The notes under the pieces: generated by a model | Told to the model about the DNA's origin: nothing | What the model saw: only the letters and a program-made list of their open reading frames with translations | Database searches by the model: none | Shown: positions 538-15,814 of the stretch, in pieces | Numbering within the stretch: position 1 is the stretch's first letter | Layout of the letters: the number at the start of each line of letters is the position of its first letter | Position numbers and translations under genes: made by a program | IMG/VR virus record: IMGVR_UViG_2531839555_000011 | Span: 1-15,814 of that record | DNA from: a virus | Taxonomy: Duplodnaviria; Heunggongvirae; Uroviricota; Caudoviricetes | Strand: one strand, 5' to 3' | Length of the DNA stretch: 15,814 nucleotides

Positions 538-942
538 AAACTTTATATCCCACTGATTTTAATCAGTTAAATTAACAAACATGCCATGCATTTTAGCTAA
601 AAGTGATACACCGAGTGATATACGGATTATTGCACAAAGCCGAAAATATGCGAAAGCATGAGCACGGTAGAAAGGCGGCGAGTATAACAGTATTAAAAAG
701 CAAATTATGAATCTCTTATTGTATGAGACATCTATCCCACAATAACCCATTATCAGCATCCCCACGCATCATGCCCACCAGCGTGAAGCATTTTTCGCGG
801 GTATAAAAAATCGATGGAGCGGGCAGTCCGGAAGACGTCAGGGTACAGAGATTTGACCCGCCCCTCCCTGTGCATGAGCACAATAAGTAACCGAAGGCGG
901 AATTCCGCCCTCGGTACTCACATATGAGAAACGATATTTCTT

Positions 943-1063
943 CCACCGATCCCCTGTATTTGGGTATCGCAAGTAAGCCCCAAAATCTGGGTGTTACTCT
1001 TACTACCCAAACTACGGGTAGTTTCCGTAGTTTCATAGTCGAGTTGCAGATCTGCAACTCGCC
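943..1063. repeat. 121-bp structured direct repeat, copy A
   Basis: Aligns by eye to 1377-1497 with about 7 mismatches. Contains several perfect or near-perfect hairpins: CGATCCCC..GGGTATCG, AAACTAC-GG-GTAGTTT, GAGTTGCA-GATC-TGCAACTC. The ORF-track ORFs over the two copies are on different strands, so conservation is at nucleotide level. Confidence 0.8.
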
Positions 1064-1193
1064 ATCAGTCAGGGAAATTTTGTAATTTCACGGAGGTTAA
1101 AATTCGAAGAGGCGGGCACTCCAAGAGATAAGAGACGGTAGGGATTTTGCTCCCCCTCCTGAATGCAATTTTTCGTATATATATACAAAACAG

Positions 1194-1211
1194 TGCGGGT
1201 TATGCGGGTTA
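1194..1211. repeat. Two tandem copies of TGCGGGTTA (reverse complement of TAACCCGCA)
   Basis: gTGCGGGTTATGCGGGTTAgcg read directly from the sequence; same 9-mer as the array at 1297-1348 in opposite orientation. Confidence 0.7.
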
Positions 1212-1296
1212 GCGAGTTATCTTCGCGTGCTAAGTATTTTTTATTATTTAATATCAATGCGTTGAAAAATAACATGTTCAAATGTTAGCCAAATCG

Positions 1297-1348
1297 TAAC
1301 CCGCAAGTCATTCAAAATAACCCGCAACCTCTCCCAAATAACCCGCAA
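1297..1348. repeat. Three direct copies of aaaTAACCCGCAA at 21-bp phasing (candidate protein-binding array)
   Basis: TAACCCGCAA at 1297-1306, 1318-1327 and 1339-1348, each preceded by an A-rich tract. The 21-bp period puts the sites on one face of the helix. Interpretation as integrase arm-type or excisionase sites is inference. Confidence 0.6.
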
Positions 1349-1376
1349 ACACATCAGGAAAGTGGGGCCAGTGATG

Positions 1377-1497
1377 CCACCGATCCCCTTTATTTGGGGA
1401 TCGCGAGTAAGCCCCAAAATCTGGGTGTTGCTCTTACTACCCAAACTACGGGTAGTTTCCGTAGTTTCATGGTCGAGTTGCAAATCTGCAACTCACC
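1377..1497. repeat. 121-bp structured direct repeat, copy B
   Basis: About 94% identical to 943-1063. Hairpins CGATCCCC-TTTATTT-GGGGATCG (perfect 8-bp stem), AAACTAC-GG-GTAGTTT and GAGTTGCA-AATC-TGCAACTC. Lies immediately right of the TAACCCGCAA array. Confidence 0.8.
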
Positions 1498-1833
1498 CAC
1501 CAGCCAACCCATTTTTGGGCCGTCGGGAATATCAACAAGTTAGCACAGAAATAACTCAGGCAGATACAAAACTCAATTTTGAGGTTTGCTTATTATTCAG
1601 TTGGTTAACATCCCTCAAAACTGAGGACTGTACCCAAAACTATTCTTATAGCTCCGGCCTCAGCCGTTGGCTTTTCCCGAAAATATCAGTCAGTTACGTT
1701 AACCGCTAATTTCTGCCTTTGGTGTGAATACTGTCGCTTTAACCTACGGTAATTGTTCTGCCTCGGTGCGTGTCACCGCCGTAACCGCGCCAGTAAAACC
1801 CACAGATTCGTGGTTTTCCTGAATATCAGGAAT

Positions 1834-2127
1834 CTACCGCCGCAACCGTTCCGGCTTCTTCCACTGGTAAGTATTTTTCGCGCTCTCCCTCCGTTGTTGA
1901 GAACGGCGACGGTATGCCAGCAACTCAAGGACTCTGGTTCGTATGTTGCGCATATCCACGCCGTTAAGCTCAATAACGTCACGGCGCATCACCTTAGCCA
2001 CCACACGCGCGTAATTTTCAGCGGTGACGGTATCCGGCTGCTTGGCCTCCGGTTTGCCTGTTGCCTGGCAGACTCCGGTAACGCAGCGAATTATTTTTAG
2101 TAGATCGGTTTCAGTCATTCTCGTCAT
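1834..2127 (-). CDS. Hypothetical basic 97-aa protein coupled to the large terminase
   Basis: ATG at 2127-2125 overlaps the terL stop (2126-2124) as ATGA. Arg/Lys-rich C-terminus. No family recognised. Confidence 0.45.
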   Translation of the reverse strand: MTRMTETDLLKIIRCVTGVCQATGKPEAKQPDTVTAENYARVVAKVMRRDVIELNGVDMRNIRTRVLELLAYRRRSQQRRESAKNTYQWKKPERLRR

Positions 2128-3785
2128 ACCCCATCAAATGCCGCTAGTCGCTCTTTCTGGCTGTCGCTCATATCAAATGCAAATTCCTCATGCTCAGCCT
2201 GGAATGTGCCAAACGCCATCAGCGCCGCAACGCTCGGGTCTATCTTGTTGGATGATTTTTTCTTGTTCGGCTTGATATTGGCGTTCGCGTCACTCTGCAT
2301 CACAACATTACTCATTGACCAGGCCAGCACCGGATCACCACGATGCACAATCACCTTCCGGTTAACAAAAACCTCGAACGATTTCGCCGCCGGACTGAAA
2401 CGAAGGTAGGTTTGAGGGAACGGCTCCACCTCAAAGCCTGCCCCCTGTAACTGCGTTCTCAGGTGCGTGGCGTTCCACGTATCAAAGCCCACCAGCCTGA
2501 TATTGAAATTCTCTGCATCCGCCATGATGTCATCACGGATACGGTCATAATCAATGCAGTCACCCGGTGTTGTGCGTATCCAGCCCGCCTTTGCCCACTG
2601 GCGATAGATGGCGCGGTTTTTATTGGCGGGGTTCTGTAGCTGAAATTCCGGCAGATAGTGACGAGAAACCAGCATAATGGTTTTACCAACCGGAAAGGCA
2701 TAGCACACGCTGGAGATGTCGCTTGTAGATGATAAATCAAGCCCCGCGTAACACTCCTGACCGTGTAAATCTTCCTCCGTGAACGTTCCGGCGCACTCAG
2801 CCCATGCACCGTTACCCATCCACGGCGTAGCCCCCTGACACCAGATATTGAATCGCTTGGTGAGCATTTCCACCCACTGCGACGGAATACCCCGCGCTTT
2901 CTGGATGGTTGAGGCCAGTTTTTCACGATCTACGGAAACATCGATATTGGGATTCGCCTTTATCCACATCGCCGGATCGTCAACCTCGCTTTCATCATCC
3001 AGCTCATAAATCAGAACGAACATGGATTCGTTCACCTCTTCACCATCCAGTATCTGGCAGCAATAGTCGTAGTGTTGTTTACAGGCTGAAACAACGTTGC
3101 TCCCCGATGTGGTGATGGCAAATAACAGCCCCTCCGGGCGTGCCCCCATTCCCAGTTCAAGCGCGGAATAAACCCCGTTGTCAGGGTGGAGGTGATATTC
3201 ATCCACAATGGCAAGACTCGGGTTTGTACCTTCAATGGTTGCTGCTTTTGCTGCCAGTGGCTTTAACAGACTGTTGGTTTTCGGGTGTATCACCTTGTGT
3301 GCCTGAATATTTACCCGCTTTCGTAACGGTCGGGATAAAAGGCACATCTGACGCGCATCATCAAACACGATCCGCGCCTGATCACGACTCACGGCGGCGG
3401 TGTAAATATCCTGCTGCCCGTTTTCCATAACCAGAAACCAGTTAGCCAGGATAGCGGCGACCGTGGATTTGGCATTTTTTCGCGGAACTTCAATGAATGC
3501 GCTGGTGTATTTGCGCCGTCCGGTGGCCTTAACCTTAAAGCCCAGGATGCACGCAAAGGCGAACTGCTGCCACGGCTCCAGCTCAATGGGGCTACCGCGC
3601 ATTGCGCCTTTTACGTGCGGACACACCCTGGAAAAGGCAATAAACCGCTCCACGACCTCCGGATCGAACGTGTAAAGGGGGTTTTCAAGGTCAGAAAAAT
3701 ACCGTTTAACGGCCTGTTTCAGTCGTTTACAGGCCGTAATTTTGCCGTTTTTTACGCCTTCTGCGTACTCATGCCAGGCGGTCAA
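2124..3785 (-). CDS. Terminase large subunit
   Basis: 553-aa ORF with N-terminal ATPase and C-terminal nuclease regions typical of phage large terminases. Apparent TTG start at 3785-3783 preceded by a GAGGA Shine-Dalgarno; overlaps the terS 3' end by 17 nt. Confidence 0.9.
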   Translation of the reverse strand: MTAWHEYAEGVKNGKITACKRLKQAVKRYFSDLENPLYTFDPEVVERFIAFSRVCPHVKGAMRGSPIELEPWQQFAFACILGFKVKATGRRKYTSAFIEVPRKNAKSTVAAILANWFLVMENGQQDIYTAAVSRDQARIVFDDARQMCLLSRPLRKRVNIQAHKVIHPKTNSLLKPLAAKAATIEGTNPSLAIVDEYHLHPDNGVYSALELGMGARPEGLLFAITTSGSNVVSACKQHYDYCCQILDGEEVNESMFVLIYELDDESEVDDPAMWIKANPNIDVSVDREKLASTIQKARGIPSQWVEMLTKRFNIWCQGATPWMGNGAWAECAGTFTEEDLHGQECYAGLDLSSTSDISSVCYAFPVGKTIMLVSRHYLPEFQLQNPANKNRAIYRQWAKAGWIRTTPGDCIDYDRIRDDIMADAENFNIRLVGFDTWNATHLRTQLQGAGFEVEPFPQTYLRFSPAAKSFEVFVNRKVIVHRGDPVLAWSMSNVVMQSDANANIKPNKKKSSNKIDPSVAALMAFGTFQAEHEEFAFDMSDSQKERLAAFDGV

Positions 3786-4125
3786 GCTCGTCCTCTTCCT
3801 CTGTTTCCGGTGGATTTCTGCGGCGGCTTACCGGGTCAAAACCCAGCAAAGAAGCCATTTTGATCATTATTCTTTCTGCGTCAGCCTTTGCGCTCAGGGC
3901 GGGGTTTCTGCTCTCGCTGCCCTGACTGTTAACAATGCTGAACCCGCGCGTCGCAAGGTCTTCGACGGCTTTGCGGTATATGGAGTAGTTAACACAATAC
4001 AGTTCCAGATTGCTCCAGTCGGCGGGGGTAAGGTCTTCCCGCCCGGAAAGCTGGCGCGATTTTTCCTTCCACTGCCTGACCGCGATTTCATCCAGGTAAG
4101 CGGGGGCTTTTGGTGGTCTTGCCAT
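3769..4125 (-). CDS. Terminase small subunit (P27-like)
   Basis: Start placed at the internal ATG (4125-4123) giving MARPPKAPAYLDEIA..., a typical P27-family small terminase N-terminus. The upstream part of the track ORF is a poly-Gly artefact of a G-run. Confidence 0.8.
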   Translation of the reverse strand: MARPPKAPAYLDEIAVRQWKEKSRQLSGREDLTPADWSNLELYCVNYSIYRKAVEDLATRGFSIVNSQGSESRNPALSAKADAERIMIKMASLLGFDPVSRRRNPPETEEEDELDRLA

Positions 4126-4412
4126 GTTTTTTTTCGCCCAATTATTTTCAAAAAAATTACCGTGCACAAAAATTTGAGGGGGCGGTCGGTGTCCGGCAGG
4201 GACGGTTTCGTCCTGAAAACCACCCCCACCCCCTCTGACGGCCTCACCAGCGATTGCGAAAACATTCCATGACCTCGCGGTCACGGTCGGTTAATCGCTT
4301 CGCTGTGGTGCGTTTTGTGCGCCCTGTCCTGTTGGCTTTGTGCTCTGTCTCCTGTGTCTTCCATGTGTCACGCTGCCTTATCAGTCCACGTATCAGCCTG
4401 GTTTGCTCCTGT
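4126..4412. other. Candidate cos / packaging-initiation region
   Basis: Non-coding gap between HNH and terS, the position cos occupies in HK97-type genomes. Contains a G/C-rich nested dyad, GAGGGGG (4176-4182) ... CCCCCTC (4229-4235) with an inner GGACG-gttt-CGTCC hairpin, next to A/T runs. Assignment is inference. Confidence 0.3.
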
Positions 4413-4853
4413 TCAGTCATCATCGCCATACATCCAGTCGTTACGGTGTGCCGCCCGTTCTTCCTGCTCGCGATACATGCCCGCTTTACGGTTTGCTTTC
4501 GTGGCTGGATCTTCCCGTGTCGTCTTACGGTTGTGGCACGTCTGGCACAATGCCTGGTGATTCCACTCAGGCCAGAAGAGAACATCACCGCCGCCATTGA
4601 TGGGAATGATGTGATCCACCACAAGAGCTGGCGTATAAATCCCCTTAGCCAGACAACGCACGCATAACGGGTTTTTGCTCAGGTACAGGGCGCGGTATTT
4701 GTCCCACTGTCGGGAATACCCGCGCGCGCGGCGGTGTCCCCGTCTGGCATCCTCTGCACGCCATGCAGCCCGCCTGTGCTCTTCACACTTGCCGGACTTC
4801 ACGCGCTTATTACAGCCAGGCTCAGTGCATCGCCTTAATGGTTGCCACGGCAT
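4413..4853 (-). CDS. HNH endonuclease (terminase-associated)
   Basis: 146 aa with Cys pairs and the H..N..H / CxxCHxxK pattern (VVDHIIPINGGGD...LCQTCHNRKT). Sits immediately upstream of terS as in HK97-like cos phages. Its ATG overlaps the connector stop by 1 nt. Confidence 0.9.
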   Translation of the reverse strand: MPWQPLRRCTEPGCNKRVKSGKCEEHRRAAWRAEDARRGHRRARGYSRQWDKYRALYLSKNPLCVRCLAKGIYTPALVVDHIIPINGGGDVLFWPEWNHQALCQTCHNRKTTREDPATKANRKAGMYREQEERAAHRNDWMYGDDD

Positions 4854-5155
4854 CAGTACACCCCTACGTCACGATAAACTGACCAGAGCGCAGAAATAGC
4901 CATAGGCAGTTCCGAGTGCTCCACTGGTGAAACCGCTTCCCGGTTCTCGTACAGGAAAGCGATGTACATCAGGCAACCAACACGCATTGCCGGGGTAAAT
5001 TCCAGCCCGTCTTCAAAACGTTTCCCGATATGCTTCTGGCAGGCTTCCAGCGCCGCATCGGTATACATTTTCAGAAGTTCGCCTTCACCGGATAAATCAT
5101 CATCAAGTCGAAGATGTGCCCTGACTTCATCAGGTGTAATTCTGGCTTCACTCAT
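4853..5155 (-). CDS. gp6-like head-tail connector / head completion protein
   Basis: Start at the internal ATG 5155-5153 with GGAGAA Shine-Dalgarno, 100 aa. Carries the family-typical LRLDDD...YENRE signature. Confidence 0.8.
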   Translation of the reverse strand: MSEARITPDEVRAHLRLDDDLSGEGELLKMYTDAALEACQKHIGKRFEDGLEFTPAMRVGCLMYIAFLYENREAVSPVEHSELPMAISALWSVYRDVGVY

Positions 5156-6362
5156 CTTTTCTCCCTTTAATTTCCACAGTCTGTTTCCATGCCTGGCTGA
5201 ACTCATCACCACCTTCACGCGGCGGCATACCCTCACGCTCACGGGCTTCGTTCGGATTCATGATCCCGTTCTTAATCCCTTTCTCATACGTGGCATAACG
5301 TTCGGTGGGTGTGGCGCGTAATAAATCGGCTGAATCAAACTCAACCAGATAACGGGTACCAGGTACGGGAGAAGCCACCAGCAAAGCGGCCTTGATTTGC
5401 TGTTCGAAGTTCGCCAGCCACGGGCGCATTGTCATGGTCAGAAACGCGCGGCTTGCCTCGCTGAAATTGCTGTAGGTGCTGTTGCTGTATTCCTGCAGAA
5501 AAATAGGCGATACGTTGAACATGCGGGCGATGTCTTCAATGGAGAAGCGACGGGAGGCCAGCCATTCCGCATCCTGGTTACTCATTCCCAGTTGCCTGTA
5601 ATCCATGCCCCCTTCAAGGATTGGCGTTTTTCCGGCATTTTTCGCCCCCTTGTAGCGTTCCAGAGCATCCAATGCCTGTTTACCTTTCACGCCGTCCAGC
5701 CATTCGCCTGACGTGATAATCCCTGCCGCCATCATGCCATCTTTCATAATGCTGGCTCCGTGGCGCTGTTGAGCAAGGCCAAGCCCAAGTGCCTCACGGC
5801 AAATCGTGACGGGGGAGCGCCCCAGAAAGCCATCATCCGAGGCATAGCGGAGATGCAGAACTTCTTCCTGTAAATACGTGCGCACCGTTCCTGTATAGGG
5901 TTCGGTGATGGTATAGCGGTATTTGTGTGCGCCTGTGCGTTCCGGTACAACACACCCCGGCGCATAAGGATGAAGTGATTTTGGCTGCCCGTCCTGCCCC
6001 CACTCAATAACCGCATAGGCGTTACCGTTCAGCAGGCAGTGACGCATCATTGTGCGTTTAAACTGGTAAGGTGTCTGGCACGAATTAGGCTGCTCATTCA
6101 GCAGAATATCTACCGGGTGACTGTCCAGCCATTCCCGCGCCTCCCTTCCCTTGTCATTACGTACCAGATACAGATAACACGGCATCGTGGCCACCGCCTC
6201 AGCGATGACAGAAACCGCATTCATCACTGCAGGCAATGATTCAGCCGTCCCGGCAGAAACATATTCTCCGGATCCGGTATTCGGTACGCCGGACAGCGCC
6301 AGAAAATCATCAATGGACAGGTTACGCTGCTCGCTTTTTTTACGACTAAAAGGCCACCACAT
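5148..6362 (-). CDS. Portal protein (HK97 family)
   Basis: Start placed at ATG 6362-6360 (MWWPFSRKK...), directly after the protease stop; the longer track ORF would overlap the protease by about 90 nt. About 404 aa with a portal-like central region. Confidence 0.9.
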   Translation of the reverse strand: MWWPFSRKKSEQRNLSIDDFLALSGVPNTGSGEYVSAGTAESLPAVMNAVSVIAEAVATMPCYLYLVRNDKGREAREWLDSHPVDILLNEQPNSCQTPYQFKRTMMRHCLLNGNAYAVIEWGQDGQPKSLHPYAPGCVVPERTGAHKYRYTITEPYTGTVRTYLQEEVLHLRYASDDGFLGRSPVTICREALGLGLAQQRHGASIMKDGMMAAGIITSGEWLDGVKGKQALDALERYKGAKNAGKTPILEGGMDYRQLGMSNQDAEWLASRRFSIEDIARMFNVSPIFLQEYSNSTYSNFSEASRAFLTMTMRPWLANFEQQIKAALLVASPVPGTRYLVEFDSADLLRATPTERYATYEKGIKNGIMNPNEAREREGMPPREGGDEFSQAWKQTVEIKGRKDE

Positions 6363-6363
6363 A

Positions 6364-6924
6364 TCACAACCCCGCCAGCTCAGACCAGCGATGACGATTA
6401 TTTCCTGTCGGGCATAATTCAGGGTGCTGTGCAAACAACGAACGGTGGGCAATCTCCACGCCAGATTCTGGATAAGCAGGCATCGACGTTATTGTGATTT
6501 CACGGAGTTCAGCGGCGGTTACGGTACGCAAATACGGTTTTTGCGCGATACTCCACTCCTCGCATAATGCGCGAAAACCAAAGCTCATTCCTGTAATGTC
6601 GCCACGCTCCACCAGCGTAAGCACATCTTTTCCAAGCTGGGTATCCGGCGGTGTCAGTTCAAAACGTAACCCGGTGTTATCCTCAGTCAGTACCAGAGTG
6701 CCGGATTTGGTGCGCCCCAGCAGTTGGGTATAGTCATGCTCATACAGGCAGCGCACATCATTACCCGCCGCCAGATAGTCAGCAAAAGCCCCCGGCGTGA
6801 ACTGTTCGCGGAATTCGTCCCAGATAATTTCTGAAAGGCTGTTCCAGCGAACGGCATACCCCACCAGCTTTTTATTGCTGGCGGTCAGTTCAGATGTGCG
6901 GATTTCAAAATCGGTGTTTTTCAT
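6364..6924 (-). CDS. Prohead maturation protease (HK97 family)
   Basis: 186 aa, GGAGT Shine-Dalgarno; sequence pattern (GYAVRWN...GAFADYL...LYEHD...GMSFGF...ITSMPAYP) typical of HK97-type prohead proteases. Confidence 0.9.
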   Translation of the reverse strand: MKNTDFEIRTSELTASNKKLVGYAVRWNSLSEIIWDEFREQFTPGAFADYLAAGNDVRCLYEHDYTQLLGRTKSGTLVLTEDNTGLRFELTPPDTQLGKDVLTLVERGDITGMSFGFRALCEEWSIAQKPYLRTVTAAELREITITSMPAYPESGVEIAHRSLFAQHPELCPTGNNRHRWSELAGL

Positions 6925-6930
6925 CGGTGT

Positions 6931-6966
6931 ACTCCATAAAGCTGAAAAAGGAGGCCGCAGCCTCCT
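6931..6966 (-). terminator. Possible partial terminator/attenuator between capsid and protease genes
   Basis: GC hairpin AGGAGGC-cgca-GCCTCCT (6949-6966) followed on the minus strand by TTTT, 13 nt after the capsid stop. Could tune capsid to protease/portal stoichiometry. Confidence 0.35.
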
Positions 6967-6978
6967 CCTTACTCATGA

Positions 6979-8148
6979 CTAGCCAGCTTTCATTTCCAGA
7001 ATTTTGATGGCGTTTGAATCCACCACACCACCGCCCAGATATTTATCCGTGTGGACCTTGTAGAATCCGGGTTCAGTAATGTTGTCCGGTCGGGTGCGAA
7101 TCCCTGTTACATGATCAACGATGAAATAACCACGACTGAAATCGCCAACCGCTAGCGGTGCTTTTCCTGCGCCGATGTCCGGCATGGACTCCAGGCAGTA
7201 AACAGGACGACCAAGCAACATATCCGGCGCACCTTCTTTAAGGCTGTCGCGCCAGATATAATCGCCGTTCTCATTTTTCAGCTTCTGTAGTGTCCCTGCC
7301 GTGCCCGAGTTCATCACCCAGACGGCATTTTTGCGGTATTTCGCTTTCAGCTTGTAGAGAATGTCGATCAGTTCGTCCGCTGTAATGGCGGTTCCACTTG
7401 CCGCTACTATTTTTTCAATGGTGCCAAAAGCGCGGGTTTTGTCACTGGTCGCCGCACGGGTGTAAGCCATGAAGCCTTTCGGCTTGCCGTTACCGTCGCC
7501 ATTAACAAAATCATCCTCTTCGGTGCTGGCGAACGTGTCGGCAATTTCGGAGGATAACCAGCCCAGAATATCCACCTCTGAAAAATCCAGGATTTCCTGC
7601 GTGGTTTTCGGGTAGGCGTAGATCGGATTCAGCTTGATGGTTACGCGTTCAATTTTCGGGGTGTTGGTTTCACTGCGTGCGCTGCCTTCTGTGCCTCGTC
7701 CTACAGTTGCGCCGCCAGTGGAAACCAGTTTCTGAAACTCATTTGATTTTGCGGTCTTCACGGTCGCGATCACGCGCATAACACTGTCATCCTGTAGCTG
7801 GCGCATGACTTCGCGATCAAGCTCAGGAATTACGGTATATCCGCCATCCCTGCCGCTGTCAGTGCTGGTGGACAGTGATCGCACATCTCCGGTTACGATG
7901 TAGTTACGCAATTCATCAGATGATAATTTCTGGATGCCCGTTCCTGGCTTGCTGCGTTCTTCATCAGCCACAGACTCGAGGCGGGAAATTTCTGTGTCGA
8001 GGGCATCAGCTTTTGCACGCAGTTCATCAAACTGTTTGCCTTCTTCAGCGTTCAGACTACGGTTTTCACTGTCGGCTTTTTCCAGCAGGGATCGCATCTG
8101 GTTTTTCAGGGCGTTTTTTTGCTGGCGGAGTTCGATTAATTTCTTCAT
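6979..8148 (-). CDS. Major capsid protein (HK97 fold) with N-terminal scaffolding-like coiled coil
   Basis: 389 aa. N-terminal about 100 aa is charged and coiled-coil-like (delta-domain-like); C-terminal core has HK97 MCP-like motifs (AVGDFSRGY). Confidence 0.9.
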   Translation of the reverse strand: MKKLIELRQQKNALKNQMRSLLEKADSENRSLNAEEGKQFDELRAKADALDTEISRLESVADEERSKPGTGIQKLSSDELRNYIVTGDVRSLSTSTDSGRDGGYTVIPELDREVMRQLQDDSVMRVIATVKTAKSNEFQKLVSTGGATVGRGTEGSARSETNTPKIERVTIKLNPIYAYPKTTQEILDFSEVDILGWLSSEIADTFASTEEDDFVNGDGNGKPKGFMAYTRAATSDKTRAFGTIEKIVAASGTAITADELIDILYKLKAKYRKNAVWVMNSGTAGTLQKLKNENGDYIWRDSLKEGAPDMLLGRPVYCLESMPDIGAGKAPLAVGDFSRGYFIVDHVTGIRTRPDNITEPGFYKVHTDKYLGGGVVDSNAIKILEMKAG

Positions 8149-8375
8149 GAAGGTTTTCTCGTATTGGTTAAGATTCAGGACGTGAAACCAACACGGAGGG
8201 AGCGCCGCCCGACACTCTCGGCATCTCGCAGATCAACCCGGCATCGCGCAGGGGGTCAGGCGGCATTGTGGCGGCTCACGTCTGAGTGCCACACGCCAAC
8301 ATATACATAAAAATCAGTATGTAAATATCAGCCAGAATCACTGAACAGCCAGAAACAACCACGAACAAATAATTT

Positions 8376-8410
8376 ACAAAACCTGAAAAGAAAACCCGGA
8401 AAAATCCGGG
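8376..8410 (-). terminator. Rho-independent terminator ending the replication operon
   Basis: On the minus strand, CCCGG-atttttt-CCGGG followed by TTTTCTTTTCAGGTTTTG, 12 nt after the stop of the 82-aa gene. Confidence 0.6.
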
Positions 8411-8421
8411 CCTTTATCGCT

Positions 8422-8670
8422 TTACTGTTTCATGGAATCCCGCATTCTGCGTCTTATTTTCCACAGATATTCGATCATCGCTTCCACCTGCTCACGGTTG
8501 GTTGCGAAAATTTCCCCGGTCAGTGAGCTGCGCAGAAAATCATGATGATCCACAACAAATAACGCATCGGAAGAAAGCAGACGGCGATATTTTTTTGCTG
8601 TCGTGGTTTCCAGATCATCAATACCATGAAACTTTTTATGTTGCTGAACTTCTTCAAATGTCACTGGCAT
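8422..8670 (-). CDS. Hypothetical 82-aa protein
   Basis: ATG at 8670-8668 with a strong AGGGGG Shine-Dalgarno at 5-nt spacing; followed by a terminator. No family recognised. Confidence 0.6.
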   Translation of the reverse strand: MPVTFEEVQQHKKFHGIDDLETTTAKKYRRLLSSDALFVVDHHDFLRSSLTGEIFATNREQVEAMIEYLWKIRRRMRDSMKQ

Positions 8671-8687
8671 GTATCCCCCTGTTATCG

Positions 8688-9110
8688 CTAAAAGGGTATG
8701 TTATCCCCATATGGATCATCATTCCCCGCCTGTTGCTTAGCCCTATTTAGAGCGTCAGTAGCCTGGCCCTGCTGGCCTTTTTTGCCACCAGGTCGCGCCG
8801 TTCTGGCACTGATTACGCTGTCTGCGATAACCTGCCAGCCCTGCCGCGTTTCCCCGTTCTGTCCGGTCCACTGGCTCACCTGCATGTTACCCGCCACGCT
8901 CAGGAGTTCACCCTTGCGGTGCTTTGCCAGTGCTTCGGCCTGTCTGCCAAACGCCAGGACGGATAACCACATCGTCGCCGTTCCGTCATCTGCCTGGCTG
9001 CACGGCAGGGTGACCGCCATGCTCGCCATAGCCATTTGTGTGCCCTTGCTGGTGGTCTTTAACTGTGGGTCAGCCACCAGCCGCCCGTAAGCCGCTATCT
9101 GTGCTGTCAT
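8688..9110 (-). CDS. Single-stranded DNA-binding protein-like
   Basis: 140 aa, OB-fold-like N-terminus, Gly/Gln-rich linker and an acidic C-terminal tip DDPYGDNIPF resembling the SSB ...DDDIPF tail. GGAGAG Shine-Dalgarno; ATGA overlap with the upstream 81-aa gene. Confidence 0.75.
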   Translation of the reverse strand: MTAQIAAYGRLVADPQLKTTSKGTQMAMASMAVTLPCSQADDGTATMWLSVLAFGRQAEALAKHRKGELLSVAGNMQVSQWTGQNGETRQGWQVIADSVISARTARPGGKKGQQGQATDALNRAKQQAGNDDPYGDNIPF

Positions 9111-9352
9111 GCTGTCTGCTCTCCGGTTTTAACGTTGATGGTTGTCACCTGTTCCGCTTCGGCAATCTCCCGTTCTGTCAGCGTGGCAAAGTTTGCAGCT
9201 GCCGTTGTCATGAATGAGCTAATCAGTTCGGGATGTGCTTTCGCATATCCTTCCCCGGCGTTGCGGTCGATGATTTTTATCGACACCCTTAACCAGTGTT
9301 CCGTCAAATCAAGGGCGTGCGATTGTGATTTTTTTGTGTGCTTCGCTGTCAT
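9107..9352 (-). CDS. Hypothetical 81-aa protein
   Basis: ORF translationally coupled (ATGA) to the SSB-like gene; weak Shine-Dalgarno. No family recognised. Confidence 0.5.
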   Translation of the reverse strand: MTAKHTKKSQSHALDLTEHWLRVSIKIIDRNAGEGYAKAHPELISSFMTTAAANFATLTEREIAEAEQVTTINVKTGEQTA

Positions 9353-9402
9353 AGGCTTTATCTCACAGCAGTAAATTAAAATTTTTGCGTTTTAACCCTT
9401 CA

Positions 9403-9626
9403 CCTGTTCACCTTTTGATATTTTATCTTTTAATTCATAATGTTAAGGGGTGAACAGTTTCACAAAAACTATTCACCAACTGTTCACCACTGTTCACCCT
9501 TGAAGCTCAATAAACAATCAAAAAGGTGAACAGTGAATAGTTTGGTGAACAGTTCATAAATAACTGTTCACCCTATAATATACTGATACAAAAGATATTT
9601 ATGACAGGGTGAACAGTGGTGAACAG
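9403..9626. repeat. Iteron-type replication origin (9 copies of GGTGAACAG/CTGTTCACC)
   Basis: Exact 9-mers at 9403, 9449, 9480, 9490, 9525, 9544, 9564, 9608 and 9618 in both orientations plus partial copies, with an AT-rich tract at 9574-9606, immediately 3' of the primase-helicase gene. Confidence 0.8.
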
Positions 9627-9639
9627 TTATTCCATAAGT

Positions 9640-11457
9640 TTAATTTTTGCTATCGTCATTAGTGACCGATACACATGATGGCATCCAGTCTTCTGATTCC
9701 TCCGTCAGTGTCACGTTTGAACGCAAACCGTGCTTCGTTTTCCGTTTCATATACTCCCTGCCATATTCCGCCATTGCCCCCGGCATATCTTTACCGAAGC
9801 GCGTCAGTGTTACAGGTTTACCAAACCCATGTGCCTTCATATAAGCCAGATAGGCATGATAGAGATACCTGCGCGGGCTGAATGGCACAATTTCAGCATT
9901 ACCCACTAACAGGCCATCACACATTACCGACGCCATGAGATAGCCGCAGAAGTCCACCAGCGAATCCCCCTCTCGCTTTATCGCCAGTGCTTCTTCAGAT
10001 TTCTGCTGCTCATATAACAGGCGTCTGGCTTCGTCCTGGTCAGCAAACCGTGTAAGCAGATGGCGAATCACTACCGCCAGCTCACCTTCTATTTTTTCCG
10101 CCAGCATTGGATCACGTTCGTTCTCCGGTACAACTTCCGAAAAATTGAATATCACCCGACGACGTGAGATCCCCCCGCTGCGGTCACTGAATGACATGGC
10201 GTTATTGTTAACCGCCAGCACTACTGCCGGAATACGCGTTGAGTAGGGGGCTTTGTGTTTCGGGTCAATTGCCACCTTGTCACCGCCTGTAATAGCCTTA
10301 ATCCCTGCCCCATCACCAGCGTAGCGGGTCATATCCGGCATGATAATCAGCGAAAAGCCAACCACTAACGCGCGTTCCCTTGCATCTTCCAGCGCCTTCA
10401 TGCTTGCCGATACTGTGTTGGCCTTACCCGCCAGCATGGTGCAAATCTCCGCCATCACGCTTTTACCACTTCCCCCTGGACCTGTTACCTCAATGAATAA
10501 CTGCCAGTCGTACCGGTTCGCCAGCACCATGAATAATGCAGCCAGTACGCGATCCGCCTTGCGGTCATTCTCAGCCACCGAACGGCGTAACCACTTCCAG
10601 AAATTCGGCGCATGTGTTGCCAGCGTTTCCCCCTCTGCTGGTGGGCTGAAAGGTAATTCACTGGCAATTAACAACCAGTCGTTTTTGTTATGCTCCCGAA
10701 AATTACCTGTTCTGGTATCAAATACCCCGTTACTGAATCCAATCAGGTTACGGGCTGTATTCCCCATTACAGGCAAACTTAACTTCATGGTATCGACCGC
10801 CGATTTAATGGCGTTCTGCGAATAGCTGATCTCCGCATCAATGAAAATCTGCGCCATAGCTCGCTGTAATTCTTTATCCTGTACTGGCTCCCATACAACG
10901 CCGTTGTAATGGTGAACAGTGTCAGAGTCGGCATGAATCGCCAGTTCACCGCCATAATGTGCCAGGAGAACTTCGCCGCGTTGACTTGCTCCCATCTGGT
11001 TAAGCGCCAGTGATGAAGCGTTATCGTCTTTTACCCGCTCTTTTTTCTTTACAGGCAGTTCAACTACCTTTTTCTTTTCCGCCAGCTCTGCCCGTTCACG
11101 TTCCAGATATTCGCGCCAGTTCTCCCGTTTCTGGCTGTGCATTCCTTCAGAGTAATAATCAGCATCCCTGACACCTGCCGCTGCCAGTTTCTGCCCGATG
11201 GTATTAACAAGCCCCGGACGCAATAACCCCGCCTGATAGAGACGCACGCGATAGCGTCCGTCCGGTACGATTTGCAGGTTGTCCAGTTCGGCAAGTTGTT
11301 GCTCTCCAAGCCAGACAGGAGGCACGTTATCGCCAGCCAGTCGCCCGTCCTGTTCCTGCCACTGTTTCGCATGTGCCCACGCATCACTACCCGCAAAAAT
11401 GATGACTTCCGTCATTTTGTCACGCGGCTGGTGTTTTAAATTTGGCGCTTTTTTCAT
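9640..11457 (-). CDS. Replication initiator: primase / SF3 helicase
   Basis: Start at ATG 11457-11455 (MKKAPNLK...) with GGAGAG Shine-Dalgarno; Walker A GPGGSGKS and Walker B-like LIIMPD; about 605 aa. Domain architecture consistent with P4/PICI primase-helicases. Confidence 0.85.
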   Translation of the reverse strand: MKKAPNLKHQPRDKMTEVIIFAGSDAWAHAKQWQEQDGRLAGDNVPPVWLGEQQLAELDNLQIVPDGRYRVRLYQAGLLRPGLVNTIGQKLAAAGVRDADYYSEGMHSQKRENWREYLERERAELAEKKKVVELPVKKKERVKDDNASSLALNQMGASQRGEVLLAHYGGELAIHADSDTVHHYNGVVWEPVQDKELQRAMAQIFIDAEISYSQNAIKSAVDTMKLSLPVMGNTARNLIGFSNGVFDTRTGNFREHNKNDWLLIASELPFSPPAEGETLATHAPNFWKWLRRSVAENDRKADRVLAALFMVLANRYDWQLFIEVTGPGGSGKSVMAEICTMLAGKANTVSASMKALEDARERALVVGFSLIIMPDMTRYAGDGAGIKAITGGDKVAIDPKHKAPYSTRIPAVVLAVNNNAMSFSDRSGGISRRRVIFNFSEVVPENERDPMLAEKIEGELAVVIRHLLTRFADQDEARRLLYEQQKSEEALAIKREGDSLVDFCGYLMASVMCDGLLVGNAEIVPFSPRRYLYHAYLAYMKAHGFGKPVTLTRFGKDMPGAMAEYGREYMKRKTKHGLRSNVTLTEESEDWMPSCVSVTNDDSKN

Positions 11458-11753
11458 TTCTGCTCTCTCCACGCGGCAATCATGTTTTTCAGTTCCTGTA
11501 GTTTTTTATCAACATCCATACATGACACATGGTTATTTCTGGAAAGCGGGATTTCCCGCCGGAATCTGCAAATAAAGATCTCCACGTTCAGCGAACTATG
11601 AAATGAATAGCCATCACGAATAAAATAAACACGGTCAAACATCAGCTCTTTTACCGTTACTCTGTTACCGTTCTTATCCAGATAAATAGCGCCGGGGATA
11701 ATTTTTGGGTGTGCATAACCGCTGGCAGTCAAGCCAGATAAATATGTTCTCAT
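11454..11753 (-). CDS. Hypothetical 99-aa protein coupled to the primase
   Basis: ATGA overlap with the primase start. About 38% GC, lower than the element backbone. No family recognised. Confidence 0.55.
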   Translation of the reverse strand: MRTYLSGLTASGYAHPKIIPGAIYLDKNGNRVTVKELMFDRVYFIRDGYSFHSSLNVEIFICRFRREIPLSRNNHVSCMDVDKKLQELKNMIAAWREQK

Positions 11754-11759
11754 GATTAT

Positions 11760-12080
11760 TTATCCCCGATTTGAATCAGTATTCGCTTTCTTTATGGCAT
11801 TTAATGCATCTGTGGCATTATCAATGGTGCACCGTAACGAAATATCAAACTGCCCAAGCATTGCCAGTAACAAGCCAATATTCCCCATGTCAATGCGCAT
11901 AGCCTTTTCGTCATATTCCTCATTTTCTGACGCATACCACATCAGGTTACCAATTGACGCAACAGCCATTGATATATTGTCAGTAGCCGCATCCGCAGCA
12001 GAATAAACCTTTTTAGCAATATCATGCTCACAGTTAAAATGCGGATTAATCAGGTACTGGTAATTGGTCATGTCAGGCAT
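11760..12080 (-). CDS. Hypothetical 106-aa acidic protein
   Basis: Strong AGGGGGG Shine-Dalgarno before ATG 12080-12078; AT-rich coding sequence. No family recognised. Confidence 0.55.
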   Translation of the reverse strand: MPDMTNYQYLINPHFNCEHDIAKKVYSAADAATDNISMAVASIGNLMWYASENEEYDEKAMRIDMGNIGLLLAMLGQFDISLRCTIDNATDALNAIKKANTDSNRG

Positions 12081-12276
12081 GGCACCCCCCCTGACGAATA
12101 CGGGCGGCGAATACCATCACGCAGCCAGCCGGGGATTGCTGGCGTGCTTCCTGTTCGCTGGTGGCCTCAATGGTAATCACGCGCGGTTGTGCCGTGCTCA
12201 GGGCGATAAAACGCCAGATGTATTTATTCAGGTTGTGCGAGTCCCGCCCTTGCGGGTGTGTGGTATGATTTAACAT
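12073..12276 (-). CDS. Possible 67-aa first gene of the leftward operon
   Basis: Internal ATG 12276-12274 of a longer spurious ORF, preceded by GAGGT at 5-nt spacing; overlaps the start of the 106-aa gene by 8 nt. Composition unusual, so low confidence. Confidence 0.4.
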   Translation of the reverse strand: MLNHTTHPQGRDSHNLNKYIWRFIALSTAQPRVITIEATSEQEARQQSPAGCVMVFAARIRQGGCHA

Positions 12277-12312
12277 AGCTACCTCGATACTTCTGCTATC
12301 GTTGGTGGTTAG

Positions 12313-12356
12313 ACGCCCCGTTACTGCTCCTACAGTGCGGGGCGTTGTTTTTTGTG
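12313..12356 (+). terminator. Hairpin plus T-tract in plus orientation (leader structure or terminator)
   Basis: ACGCCCCG..ACTG..CAGT..CGGGGCGT followed by TGTTTTTTGTG. It lies in the 5' leader of the leftward operon and upstream of the Arc-like gene; function ambiguous. Confidence 0.35.
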
Positions 12357-12370
12357 TAATGGTAAGTACA

Positions 12371-12419
12371 ATGGTAATTACCATGTAACTATAGTAATTA
12401 AGGGTAATTACCATGTCAA
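12371..12419. promoter_or_regulatory. Palindromic operators overlapping divergent promoters
   Basis: ATGGTAATTACCAT (12371-12384) and GGTAATTACCAT (12403-12414) 30 bp apart, plus degenerate half-sites. On the minus strand TTGACA (12419-12414), a 17-nt spacer and TACTAT (12396-12391) form a sigma70-like promoter with the second operator inside the spacer. Confidence 0.5.
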
Positions 12420-12586
12420 CACCATTAGAGAAACGATCGCCACCATACCAAATGCGACTACCAGAAGAATTTAGAGCGCAACTTGAGGAGGCAGCCAAGG
12501 CAGACGGCGACACCTCATTAGCTACTTGGATTAAACGAATACTCCGCAAAGAATTACAACAGCGCGGTATCGAGCCCAAAGGCTGA
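12413..12586 (+). CDS. Arc/Mnt-like ribbon-helix-helix repressor (57 aa)
   Basis: Translated by hand: MSTPLEKRSPPYQMRLPEEFRAQLEEAAKADGDTSLATWIKRILRKELQQRGIEPKG. The P-x-Y/F-x-M/L-R-L/W-P...IxxRIxxxL pattern matches the P22 Arc beta-strand plus two helices. Too short for the 60-aa ORF track; only plus-strand gene in the element. Confidence 0.7.
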   Translation: MSTPLEKRSPPYQMRLPEEFRAQLEEAAKADGDTSLATWIKRILRKELQQRGIEPKG

Positions 12587-12680
12587 CAGCCAACCAGCAA
12601 GCCAGCACACTGATCACATTGCCCACCAGCCGCAAATGTGGCATTGTTGGTGATGCGTTCAAGTTTAGTGTGTATCCATT

Positions 12681-12709
12681 GGCGACCGCCCCCGGTCGCC
12701 TTTGTTTTA
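12681..12709 (+). terminator. Rho-independent terminator (possibly bidirectional)
   Basis: Perfect 8-bp stem GGCGACCG-cccc-CGGTCGCC followed by TTTGTTTTAT; lies between the converging Arc-like and ORF6N genes. Confidence 0.7.
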
Positions 12710-13390
12710 TGCGCGATCATGTGCCGCCTCCCACTCATATTTATCGAAATCAATCTGCCCCATCGCATCTACCAGCCGTACCGCCGGACGCAGAACTTTG
12801 AGTTCCTTCTTGCGGAGATTCATTCCATTACTGCCCTGTGAGCCATGAAACTGCTTAGAATGCTTGTCCGCACGAGTCACGGCGTTTTGCGCATCAGTAA
12901 CCGGCATGGCGATCAGTTCTTCGAGCGACGGCAGATCCACATGATGGAAAGTGACAAACTCCGGGCAACGGAAATAAGCTTTCACGAGCTGGCGCTGTAC
13001 CTGCCAGGCCAAATCATCGTTAAACGGTTTGGTCAGCAGCAGATAGCCTGATTCCGTAATCAGTGTTACGCGGCCACGTATCGGACTGTTCATTTTTTTG
13101 CCAGGGCGTTTAATGCCCCTGTCTAAATATCCAGCCCCTCCCCATTCGACCTCTGACGCGCCGACAATAAAAAAGTCCTCACCATCAATGAAGCGAGTGC
13201 GATTACGCTGAAAAGTCTTTTTAGCCGTGTCTTTAGGTCGCTGGTGCGCGGTATCGATCATTGCGAACGTCACCACGCGTTGCCCGTGAAATTCGACGGC
13301 AGGAAACTGTTTAAGCTGCACGCTAATATCGCTTTTACTGGCAACAGGGTGAGCGAATCCCTGCCCGTTAAGGGCATTAATATTTTTCAT
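12707..13390 (-). CDS. ORF6N-domain antirepressor-like protein
   Basis: 227 aa. N-terminal GQRVVTF..ID..HQRP...FQRNRTRFIDGEDFF ... TESGYLLLTKPFNDDLAWQVQRQLVKAYFR matches the ORF6N signature of phage antirepressors as I recall it. 20 nt downstream of the AlpA-like gene. Confidence 0.75.
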   Translation of the reverse strand: MKNINALNGQGFAHPVASKSDISVQLKQFPAVEFHGQRVVTFAMIDTAHQRPKDTAKKTFQRNRTRFIDGEDFFIVGASEVEWGGAGYLDRGIKRPGKKMNSPIRGRVTLITESGYLLLTKPFNDDLAWQVQRQLVKAYFRCPEFVTFHHVDLPSLEELIAMPVTDAQNAVTRADKHSKQFHGSQGSNGMNLRKKELKVLRPAVRLVDAMGQIDFDKYEWEAAHDRA

Positions 13391-13410
13391 CTCTGATTAC
13401 CTGTGGTTAA

Positions 13411-13695
13411 TTAAGCAGATTTGCGGCTGTACGGGTTATTGACGTTTTCCACGGCAGGCGGATTACGAACCCACCAGAGCACATCCGAAAGAAGCCAGGC
13501 ACAGCTGTTGCGGCCAAAGTGACAGCGCGGCGGGAAGCGCCCCTGCTGTTCCATCTTCCAGCGGCTCGAACGAGAAAGACTGGTGATCTCGCTGCATTCA
13601 TCTTCGCGGATTCGGCGATCGAACTTGAAGCCGTACTCCTCCAGAATGGTGCGGCGTTGTTCAGGATTTGGCGGGGTAAAGGTGATAATTTGCAT
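13411..13695 (-). CDS. alpA: AlpA-family regulator/excisionase-like protein
   Basis: Start at internal ATG 13695-13693 with GGAGG Shine-Dalgarno. C-terminal SLSRSSRWKMEQQGRFPPRCHFGRNSCAWLLSDVLWWV matches the AlpA helix-turn-helix pattern (LSRSTIYR..G.FP.P...G.R...W...E...W). Confidence 0.8.
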   Translation of the reverse strand: MQIITFTPPNPEQRRTILEEYGFKFDRRIREDECSEITSLSRSSRWKMEQQGRFPPRCHFGRNSCAWLLSDVLWWVRNPPAVENVNNPYSRKSA

Positions 13696-13790
13696 GTTGC
13701 CTCCACTGTTTCTAAGTTTGTGGGGGCTATTGTTATCCTTGTGATTGGATGTCACACTAGACGAAAATTAAATTGTTTTGACCACCAAGA

Positions 13791-14594
13791 TTAAGGAAGA
13801 ATTTTTCTATCCTGAAGTTCTGACCTGATTTTTTCTATAGAAGAAATTGAGAAGATTTTTTCTATATTTGGCTTTACGGTTTGCGCTATCTGCGTTGAGT
13901 CATACTCTCCGTTCGGAAACACAGCCACAGCAAGCACGCCATTGGTGACGCATGCCCCGCGAGATTTAGCCCAGATCATCAAATCAACCACGGGGAAAAG
14001 TGAATAATCGTATACCTTTTTTTTAATTGTTTCCCATGACTGGTATGTTTTTTCCTTTTCTTTTATTTTTAATTCCTCACGCCAATTCTTGAGGTTTTTT
14101 TCAAACACATCAATCAATAAATCATCCGGGCGTGACAAATCAACTTTAATAAAAAGGTCATTTGGTTCCAAAAATGAGCTAACACTTGTAAATGAATGGT
14201 AAACTAAATTTTCAGCCGTTCCCGTAAAATTATTTTCCATATAATTATCTACAGCATCTTTCATATAAATAAAGTCTTCAATGGACATTGGTCGTAACGC
14301 AACCCCACCAGACAAAACACCTTCTCTTTTAATAGGAAGTTTAAACGCATCATAGAAGTACGTAGCTCTATCAATCGCATTAGCGACCGCGCCATTTCCA
14401 AGTATCCTTCCTACTTCATCGTTATTTGTAAGAGGTTCATTATAAAAAGACCCGCCATATCGATAGAAGTTTTCAAGCATGTCATATCTAACAACCAACT
14501 GATAAAATAAGTCTTTATCTGACATGCCAATAAATTGAGTGTAGTTATCTAAATCAAACCATGTTGGCAAATCTTTTTTGTGGCTAATTCTCAT
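13791..14594 (-). CDS. AT-rich 267-aa cargo protein of unknown function, coupled to int
   Basis: 804-nt ORF; 60-nt samples give about 25-45% GC against about 50% in int. ATG 14594-14592 overlaps the int stop as ATGA. No recognisable catalytic or DNA-binding motifs. Confidence 0.7.
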   Translation of the reverse strand: MRISHKKDLPTWFDLDNYTQFIGMSDKDLFYQLVVRYDMLENFYRYGGSFYNEPLTNNDEVGRILGNGAVANAIDRATYFYDAFKLPIKREGVLSGGVALRPMSIEDFIYMKDAVDNYMENNFTGTAENLVYHSFTSVSSFLEPNDLFIKVDLSRPDDLLIDVFEKNLKNWREELKIKEKEKTYQSWETIKKKVYDYSLFPVVDLMIWAKSRGACVTNGVLAVAVFPNGEYDSTQIAQTVKPNIEKIFSISSIEKIRSELQDRKILP

Positions 14595-15814
14595 TTTTCA
14601 CCAGCCTTTAAAATAACGATATTAGAGTGATTACCCGCGAGAAGTTCTAAGCGGTCATACCACTTGTTCAGCGCGTCCAGCTTCTCCGGTAAGTAAAGAC
14701 TACGGTTATAAATCGCCATAACTCCCGGCAAGGCATGGCCCAACAGCAGCTCGACTATATGCGGTGCTATACCCATATTGTTTAGCCCCGTAGAAAACGT
14801 CCGACGCAGATCGTGAAGTGTCCACGGCTCGTTATGGTGAAAATCTTTAAAAAGCCTGCGCCCTTTCAATGATACAGCCTGACGGGTACGATCTTCGCCC
14901 AGTAACAAACCTGTTTTCCCTGTCTCGCGCTTTAACTCTTCCAGCCACGGGCGTATAGCTTCAGGTATCGACCTCACGATTTTCTCTCGGGTTTTGCTAT
15001 GCTCTTTCGGTACAGTCCAAATCCACGATGTAAAATCCCACTCTGACCATCGAGAAAGGCGAACTTCCATCGTTCGCGCACCAAAAAGCACCAGCATTTT
15101 GAGCAGACGTGAATAATACGGCTGCTGATCATCGCTATCTGTACAGCGCCACACATCAGCCAGCTCGCTATCTGACAATACGCGATCACGTTGACCAGAT
15201 GGCTGGCCTACATCCTGAATGGTGAGAAAGGCCAGAGCATCACTGGCAGCATAACGGCGAACCTTGCAGAAACGTAACGCCTGTTTAGAAATCTGGAACA
15301 TGCGGCCGGCGGTCATGGGTTTAGTCTGGTTTATTTCGTCAAAACAGGCCACCCAATGGCGGGTTTCACATCTGGTGATCGGATAACGACCAAGGCGCGG
15401 GTAAATATGCTTGCGTAGCTGCGCCCTCACCAACGCCTCATCACTGCGCTTTCTCCTGGCGTAATTCACCAACCAATATTCCAGGGCGTCTTTAACCGTT
15501 ACAGGCTTAAGCGTTTCTTCTGTGCTCAGCTCAATCTCAGTTTTCGGATCAAGCCCACCAGCCAGCCACTGGCGACACTGTTCCCGCTTTTCTCGCGCAA
15601 GTTTTAGCGGCATATCAGGGTAACGGCCAAGCGTTAAACGTTCGAGTTTGCTACCCCTTCCTCCCAACCGGTATGAAAATACCCAGCTAACGTTACCTTG
15701 CTTCGAGACCTTAACGCTTAGCCCCTCACCATCGGCAATCATGATCGGCGCTTCACGCTCAGAACCCAGCAATGCTTTTAGCTTTTTGTCGCTCAGTTTG
15801 TTTGTGCCAGCCAT
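14591..15814 (-). CDS. int: Tyrosine integrase, P4-like family
   Basis: 407 aa starting at the window edge (ATG 15814-15812). N-terminal arm-binding-like region (GEGLSVKVSKQGNVSWVFSYRLGG...), C-terminal catalytic residues (HDLRRT, LLGHA, a Tyr near the C-terminus). Confidence 0.93.
   Translation of the reverse strand: MAGTNKLSDKKLKALLGSEREAPIMIADGEGLSVKVSKQGNVSWVFSYRLGGRGSKLERLTLGRYPDMPLKLAREKREQCRQWLAGGLDPKTEIELSTEETLKPVTVKDALEYWLVNYARRKRSDEALVRAQLRKHIYPRLGRYPITRCETRHWVACFDEINQTKPMTAGRMFQISKQALRFCKVRRYAASDALAFLTIQDVGQPSGQRDRVLSDSELADVWRCTDSDDQQPYYSRLLKMLVLFGARTMEVRLSRWSEWDFTSWIWTVPKEHSKTREKIVRSIPEAIRPWLEELKRETGKTGLLLGEDRTRQAVSLKGRRLFKDFHHNEPWTLHDLRRTFSTGLNNMGIAPHIVELLLGHALPGVMAIYNRSLYLPEKLDALNKWYDRLELLAGNHSNIVILKAGEK

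Follow-up and report, generated by a model that had tools for sequence, protein, structure and literature searches.

The 15,814-nucleotide stretch of DNA analysed in this study (positions 1 to 15,814 of IMG/VR virus record IMGVR_UViG_2531839555_000011, hereafter the window) is, judging by its gene content, a satellite of the capsid-forming phage-inducible chromosomal island (cf-PICI) type that sits between hpt and gcd in the Escherichia coli chromosome. Directly 3' of the gene for its replication helicase lies a cluster of short repeats (iterons), and the comparisons reported here indicate that this cluster is very probably the initiator-dependent replication origin of the element. More specifically, the alignments support its description as an origin of the P4 alpha type in the layout of a phage-inducible chromosomal island (PICI), carried by a cf-PICI. 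This kind of origin is already known and a close homologue of it has been tested, so the novelty of the assignment itself is low. The points to be placed on record are the identity of the iteron with that of satellite P4, the architecture of two inverted units, the co-variation of a loop in the initiator with the iteron sequence, and the exchange of the whole replication cassette in a sister element.

An exact search found nine copies of the 9-mer GGTGAACAG within 9404-9626, five on the plus strand and four on the minus strand, where 0.0007 copies would be expected in 224 bp given the base composition of the cluster region itself. When one mismatch was allowed, the window contained 15 matches compared with 3.0 +/- 1.7 in 200 shuffled sequences, none of which reached 15. 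Three degenerate copies also lie in the region (9469-9477, 9397-9404 and 9533-9541). Those at 9397-9404 (minus strand) and 9533-9541 (plus strand) align in register with full sites of related origins, and GGTGAATA, which bears on the site at 9469-9477, is a frequent iteron variant among relatives. Outside the cluster the only exact copy of GGTGAACAG in the 15.8-kb window is at 10911, within the helicase gene. The 22.4-kb locus that spans the complete element with flanking DNA has 11 octamers reading GGTGAACA; nine of them fall in the cluster, one is the lone copy in the helicase gene and one lies in the host gene can. An earlier prediction made from the letters of the window (the original prediction) had proposed nine copies of a 9-mer in both orientations within about 225 bp, beside an A+T-rich tract and immediately downstream of a gene it called a primase-helicase. 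The count, the tract and the placement were all borne out. The gap that holds the cluster is 67% A+T against 50% window-wide, with spacers that reach 83% and 77%, and it starts at the stop codon of the initiator gene (9640-11472, minus strand), the first iteron following 14 bp past that stop codon.

By sequence the cluster is closest to the origin of P4 (NC_001609). The iteron is the same in both, the type 1 repeat of P4 being TGTTCACC/GGTGAACAG, and the GenBank record of P4 annotates 'ori type 1 repeats', which read GGTGAACA, in both ori and crr; five of the six type 1 repeats of P4 ori contain GGTGAACAG. An unguided blastn search with the gap returned the P4 feature 'origin of DNA replication, ori type 1 repeat x4' at 78.7% identity over 73 bp (E=4e-6). 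That alpha binds the type 1 repeats is taken here from the GenBank annotation, from PDB entry 1KA8 and from general knowledge. P4 also has an iteron cluster directly 3' of its initiator gene, and the geometry of the unit is shared, including a 35-bp A+T spacer. The original prediction had assigned the cluster to the origins of Staphylococcus aureus pathogenicity islands (SaPIs) and PICIs that are bound by their own initiator; the PICI layout stands, but the nearest relatives by sequence are P4 alpha and P4 ori and not those of a SaPI.

A multiple alignment placed P4 ori and both halves of the window's cluster in register, and on this alignment the cluster reads as two P4-ori-like units fused head to head, half A (9518-9634, plus strand) mirroring half B (9390-9505, minus strand). 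Read along the plus strand, half A has sites at 9525, 9533 (degenerate) and 9544 in the forward direction, a reversed site at 9564, the 35-bp A+T spacer, and forward sites at 9608 and 9618. Read along the minus strand, half B has forward sites at 9490, 9480 and 9469, a reversed site at 9449, the 36-bp A+T spacer, and forward sites at 9404 and 9397 (degenerate). P4 ori follows the same pattern (>>> <, A+T-rich DNA, >>) with start-to-start distances of 10, 11, 22, 43 and 10 bp, and half B shows 10, 11, 21 and 44 bp where P4 ori has 10, 11, 22 and 43. Tandem sites in the cluster are 10-11 bp apart, and the remaining gaps correspond to about two and about four helical turns (21 and 43-44 bp).

The protein encoded immediately upstream matches the Pfam families D5_N, DUF5906 and Pox_D5. 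Its residues 150-600, which cover the helicase and origin-binding parts, are 50.7% identical to residues 320-771 of P4 alpha, and its putative origin-binding domain matches PDB entry 1KA8, which is the solved C-terminal origin-binding winged helix of P4 alpha. The helicase core also matches the SaPI5 protein PriRep (7OLA, E=2.7e-10), and a weak match to PPV_E1_C (E=1.7e-4) fell below the Pfam cut-off. The N-terminal part is different. Residues 1-150 fail to align with residues 1-320 of alpha, where P4 carries a zinc-finger/Toprim primase domain; at this place the window's initiator has an unrelated domain of 140 amino acids (aa). A Pfam search with the N-terminal 170 aa returned no family at E values up to 10, and the only PHROGs match of this domain is a family of unknown function. 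In a by-eye comparison the strand IIFAGSDAW appears to occupy the place of P4 IAEGYATA, with Ala replacing Glu, a residue which we take to be catalytic in P4. The first 145 residues make up a domain that PICI initiators with three different helicase cores (alpha/D5, DUF927 and RepA/AAA_25) have in common. Because the zinc-finger/Toprim primase domain of P4 is lacking, the label 'primase' is unproven for the 610-aa protein, a superfamily 3 (SF3) helicase that the original prediction had called a primase-helicase.

The layout of the cluster is that of Gram-negative PICIs. In its account of these origins, the study of Fillol-Salom et al. 2018 (PMC6092414) places them on the 3' side of the initiator, describes an A+T-rich region flanked by two iteron sets, and gives the iteron sequences in its Figure 2a; its plasmid experiments describe a pri-ori segment of EcCICFT073 that supports plasmid maintenance and a rep mutant that gave no colonies. 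The window has the same initiator-adjacent 3' position, iteron sets that are mirrored about 9499-9524, and an SF3 helicase with a C-terminal winged helix. The sets have opposite orientations and flank A+T-rich DNA as in the PICI definition, with two A+T spacers in place of a single central one. The initiator of EcCICFT073, the prototype Gram-negative PICI, is 50% identical to that of the window and shares its N-terminal domain and architecture, the order of genes is the same (DUF4222, initiator, ori, small open reading frame (ORF), ssb), and in its 288-bp gap the order, orientation and spacing of sites agree with the window nearly position for position. However, EcCICFT073 is a classical and not a capsid-forming PICI, its iteron is GGTAGAYA (GGTAGACA) where the window has GGTGAACA, and the wing loop of its initiator differs too. 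The cf-PICI EcCIEDL933 / Sakai Sp7 (bioRxiv 10.1101/2022.09.08.507074) is the same kind of element as the window, about 15 kb long with an origin 3' of rep, and shares int, alpA, rep, ssb, capsid, protease, portal, connector, HNH, TerS and TerL with it, but it occupies the roxA-phoQ site, has an initiator core of the DUF927 type and uses the unrelated iteron TAACCCGCA. SaPI origins in S. aureus work alike, with a self-loading SF3 helicase that has a C-terminal winged helix and 6-12 iterons directly 3' of rep, in opposite orientations on both sides of A+T-rich DNA (PMC9371898). Their iterons, however, are unrelated penta- and hexanucleotides and their origin DNA has no detectable similarity to the window, which makes them a separate and remote lineage.

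Table 1. Features of the candidate origin, its initiator gene and the adjoining genes (positions in the window)
Feature	Position	Strand	Basis or remark
Downstream genes, probable replication module	8688..9352	-	81-aa protein 9107-9352; single-stranded DNA-binding protein (SSB) 8688-9110
Whole origin region, from initiator stop codon to next gene	9353..9639	-	287 bp, 67% A+T
Short block after last iteron, consensus TTAAACGCATATTTTTTAATTTTA	9372..9395	-	Kept across genera in class-A alignment
Half-origin B, the unit of half A inverted	9390..9505	-	Alignment with P4 ori; blastn match to P4 ori
Degenerate iteron GGTGAAGG	9397..9404	-	Related origins have full GGTGAACA at this position
Exact GGTGAACAG iteron	9404..9412	-	Exact search
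A+T spacer, 36 bp, 83% A+T	9413..9448		Candidate melting element of half B
Exact GGTGAACAG iteron	9449..9457	+	Exact search
Iteron with one mismatch, GGTGAATAG	9469..9477	-	Mismatch search
Exact iteron pair, 10 bp apart	9480-9488 and 9490-9498	-	Exact search
Central spacer, 26 bp, near dyad axis between halves	9499..9524		Inverted repeat with 56-nt arms
Half-origin A, P4-ori-like	9518..9634	+	Aligns colinearly with P4 ori 9300-9425, iterons in register
Exact iterons 9525-9533 and 9544-9552	9525..9552	+	Exact search
Degenerate iteron GTGAATAGT between two exact ones	9533-9541	+	Register with sites of related origins
Exact iteron	9564..9572	-	Exact search
A+T spacer, 35 bp, 77% A+T	9573..9607		Candidate melting element of half A
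Exact iteron pair, 10 bp apart, 9608-9616 and 9618-9626	9608..9626	+	Exact search
Initiator gene, 610 aa as longest ORF (RefSeq 605 aa)	9640..11472	-	D5_N, SF3 helicase core, Pox_D5 winged helix
C-terminal winged-helix domain, aa 502-598, putative origin-binding	9679..9969	-	PDB 1KA8, E=1.5e-24
Loop KRKTKHGLRSN, aa 576-586, putative wing	9715..9747	-	Segment co-varying with iteron class
N-terminal domain, aa 6-137, weak Toprim-like fold, not the P4 primase domain	11062..11457	-	Fold and alignment searches

The arrangement is not peculiar to E. coli. When 80 loci from other species were examined, out of 347 confirmed alpha-type loci, the homologous gap contained an iteron cluster in every one: the most repeated 8-mers in the 450 bp after the gene were iteron-like in each locus, and nearly all iteron copies of each locus of about 7.5 kb sat in those 450 bp. 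Together with the window, Escherichia phage vB_KppS-Ant, P4 and EcCICFT073 these loci made up a classification set of 84 origins, of which 79 fell into four iteron classes and five had too few exact copies to assign. Class A (GGTGAAYA) is by far the largest with 61 origins and includes the window, P4, Klebsiella, Pectobacterium and Xenorhabdus, followed by class B (GGTAGAYA, 8 origins, including EcCICFT073), class C (GGTGGAGA, 6 origins, from Yersinia and others) and class D (G[CT]GGACAG, 4 origins, from Serratia). Site order, orientation and spacing are retained across all four classes, as is a spacer equal in length to that of half B (36 bp). Among 12 class-A origins of different genera the identity to the window was 89% in iteron columns and 59% in spacer columns, and when the site mask was shifted circularly 2000 times, the observed conservation was reached only six times.

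The winged helix is highly similar across the classes except in the loop at aa 576-586; the similar part includes the segment RFGxDMPGAMAEYG, which is probably the recognition helix. Within this loop G582 does not vary among the 61 class-A origins, whereas the other classes have R, N, V or H at this position, and insertions in the loop are seen in classes B, C and D. In one locus (L083) the encoded protein shares 91% identity with a class-A protein when the loop is left out, yet the loop itself resembles that of class C and the iterons belong to class C. These differences suggest that iteron specificity is set by this loop, which is probably the wing.

A natural exchange was found in E. coli strain KSC9 (L086 9653-11533). 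Its cf-PICI, a sister element that likewise sits between hpt and gcd, is 97-99.8% identical to the window outside window positions 9144-11036. In place of that segment KSC9 has a DUF927-type helicase core together with a gap that holds six TAACCCGCA iterons, a replication cassette of the EcCIEDL933 / Sakai Sp7 type. The swap covers the helicase core, the winged helix, the origin and most of the 81-aa gene, and its right-hand breakpoint lies near aa 145, where the shared N-terminal domain ends. Therefore, helicase and origin move as one cassette. The product of the 81-aa gene (9107-9352, phrog_1231) is lost in this exchange.

Several observations weigh against the assignment of the cluster as the origin, or against parts of it. 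In P4 two separated cis sites, ori and crr, lie about 4.5 kb apart and both are needed, whereas the element in the window has two ori-like units in one 287-bp gap. No second iteron cluster was found in searches of the window and of the 22.4-kb locus, and the element has no ori/crr pair of the P4 type, which means that the mechanism of P4 is not transferable unchanged. In the plasmid experiments described in PMC6092414, deletion of the EcCICFT073 ori cut colony numbers significantly and did not abolish them. The loading of two helicase hexamers outlined below is an analogy, as such loading is known from SV40 and papillomavirus and not from the alpha family. Finally, the co-variation of loop and iteron comes from four classes and, apart from the single recombinant L083, is confounded by shared ancestry.

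One alternative is that the cluster is an accessory cis enhancer of the crr kind, bound by the initiator while replication starts elsewhere. The element directly 3' of alpha in P4 is in fact crr and not ori, and crr also has type 1 repeats. However, the concentration of octamers in this one place leaves no partner site in the element, both the unit geometry and the sequence fit P4 ori and not the 120-bp crr repeat, and, as far as the plasmid experiments in PMC6092414 describe it, the equivalent region of EcCICFT073 together with pri-rep was enough for plasmid replication. This explanation is considered quite unlikely. Another is that the cluster is mainly an operator or promoter at which binding of the initiator controls the 81-aa and ssb genes or its own operon. 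The cluster does fill the stretch that precedes the next gene, a block after its last iteron is conserved across genera, and the iteron-binding initiators of iteron plasmids often repress transcription as well. On the other hand, a scan of 9000-9900 gave such control no direct support, as it turned up neither a sigma-70-like promoter nor a terminator. The layout also shows homology to two origins that were defined by experiment, and a regulatory role may coexist with origin function without displacing it. As a replacement for the origin assignment this view is very unlikely.

It is also highly improbable that the cluster is the inactive relic of an origin in a decaying island. Some relatives in E. 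coli are degraded, with fragments of the N-terminal domain fused to SSB or PerC, but the nine core iterons of the window carry no mismatch, its initiator ORF and packaging module are intact, and the iterons are more conserved than the spacers. Of 5426 complete E. coli genomes, moreover, 594 carry the 401-bp region around the cluster (median, one place per genome), and in nearly all of these carriers it is at least 90% identical. In that search, for which the best place per genome was listed, each listed best match coincides with the 3' end of a gene of the primase family. The original prediction had named membership of a dispersed repeat family as a finding that would count against an origin, and no such dispersal was seen. 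Chance occurrence or a dispersed family that has nothing to do with replication was accordingly rejected on the statistics of GGTGAACAG, its distribution in E. coli, its confinement to the 450 bp 3' of the gene in the 80 loci and the octamer count of the 22.4-kb locus; nothing was found in its favour, and it retains next to no probability. A scan of the whole window against Rfam matched no family, which indicates that the cluster is not a known RNA element, and the papers retrieved in a literature search for the octamer were all unrelated.

If the cluster is the origin, replication may proceed as follows. Upon induction the 610-aa alpha-like SF3 helicase would be made from the gene directly upstream and would bind the GGTGAACA(G) iterons through its C-terminal winged helix. 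Spacings of 10-11, 21 and 43-44 bp would put the sites, and hence the initiator subunits, on one face of the DNA, so that each of the inverted halves could nucleate one hexamer, the two facing in opposite directions. The 35-36 bp A+T spacers would then melt and the two helicases would leave in opposite directions, giving bidirectional theta replication. Single strands would be coated by the element's own SSB, whose gene lies just downstream, and priming might be carried out by the 610-aa protein or by host DnaG. Neither a DnaA box nor an IHF consensus was found within the gap, which is consistent with a self-loading initiator. SV40 large T antigen and papillomavirus E1 load two hexamers head to head on inverted sites with flanking A+T-rich DNA. 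These origins are analogous only, as their DNA-binding domains differ and their origin sequences are unrelated to that of the window.

The annotation of an identical copy of the element in E. coli strain 3150 (RefSeq), together with Pfam matches, gave the genes around the cluster, all of which lie on the minus strand. Ahead of the cluster are an integrase, DUF6387, an AlpA-type regulator, ORF6N, an Icd-like protein, DUF4222 and a 'DNA primase family protein' (9640-11472). After the cluster come the 81-aa protein, SSB, an 82-aa protein, the major capsid protein, an HK97 protease, portal, connector, HNH, TerS and TerL. Neither source identified tail or lysis genes in the element, which is about 15 kb long, and this gene set is the one that defines capsid-forming PICIs. 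P4 carries sid, psu and delta, whereas none of these, nor epsilon of P4-like satellites, was annotated or detected in the element, which encodes an HK97-type capsid module and so builds its own capsid. There was also no match to the P4 type 2 repeat in the window, and P4 ORF106, presumably the Cnr copy-number regulator, showed no similarity to the 106-aa and 99-aa proteins encoded upstream of the initiator.

The assignment locates the origin of a widespread E. coli satellite and ties it to P4, the best-studied satellite replicon. This link makes several questions testable, namely which winged-helix residues read the iteron bases (for which four natural classes and one natural recombinant are available), whether satellite families share initiators or fight over them, and whether fused inverted ori units can replace the ori-crr pair of P4. 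It also provides an annotation rule: in alpha-type satellite replicons, the iteron cluster that follows the helicase gene on its 3' side, within about 300 bp, is to be taken as the origin. In addition, P4 and many co-resident alpha-type elements have iterons identical to those of the window, and cross-talk in replication between satellite families may therefore occur. One genome of Xenorhabdus ehlersii contains five such loci (L041, L044, L046, L048 and L078) and one of X. budapestensis contains four (L036, L052, L069 and L072), all with GGTGAAYA iterons, and the presence of four or five replicons of this kind per genome raises the question of cross-talk or incompatibility among co-resident satellites. 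A specific form of this idea is that P4 alpha fires the cf-PICI origin or the reverse, or that the elements compete as an incompatibility group, with the wing loop at aa 576-586 setting specificity; it is put forward as a speculation that is rather unlikely to hold. If it were true, the wing loop would be a readable 'compatibility code' among satellites, and swaps of a helicase and ori cassette, joined at the end of the shared non-catalytic N-terminal domain, would let satellites escape competition.

Some further observations concern the cluster and its neighbourhood. The block at 9372-9395 (TTAAACGCATATTTTTTAATTTTA) is conserved in class-A origins of several genera while the adjoining spacers vary; its candidate roles are those of a promoter, a melting element or a site bound by a host factor. 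The lone exact copy of GGTGAACAG in the initiator gene (10911-10919, plus strand) has an inverted partner with one mismatch 31 bp away (10942-10950, minus strand). It is not present in the homologous gene of vB_KppS-Ant nor in P4 alpha, and it could be a chance occurrence or an autoregulatory site. Two small conserved proteins encoded on the minus strand at 9107-9352 (phrog_1231) and 8422-8670 (phrog_1957) flank ssb, between the origin and the capsid gene.

Relatives of the element added a few more. One E. coli genome has six places that match the origin region of the window. In five E. coli proteins (P0002, P0003, P0052, P0080 and P0088) the N-terminal domain of the initiator is fused straight to SSB or PerC, which implies deletions that removed helicase and origin and left decayed, replication-dead islands. 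Lastly, a 16.5-kb record deposited as a phage, LR881103.1 'Escherichia phage vB_KppS-Ant' (L003), has the cf-PICI gene set, the same iteron layout and an initiator that is 74% identical to that of the window, and one of its genes is annotated as encoding a tape measure protein, an unusual feature in a cf-PICI.
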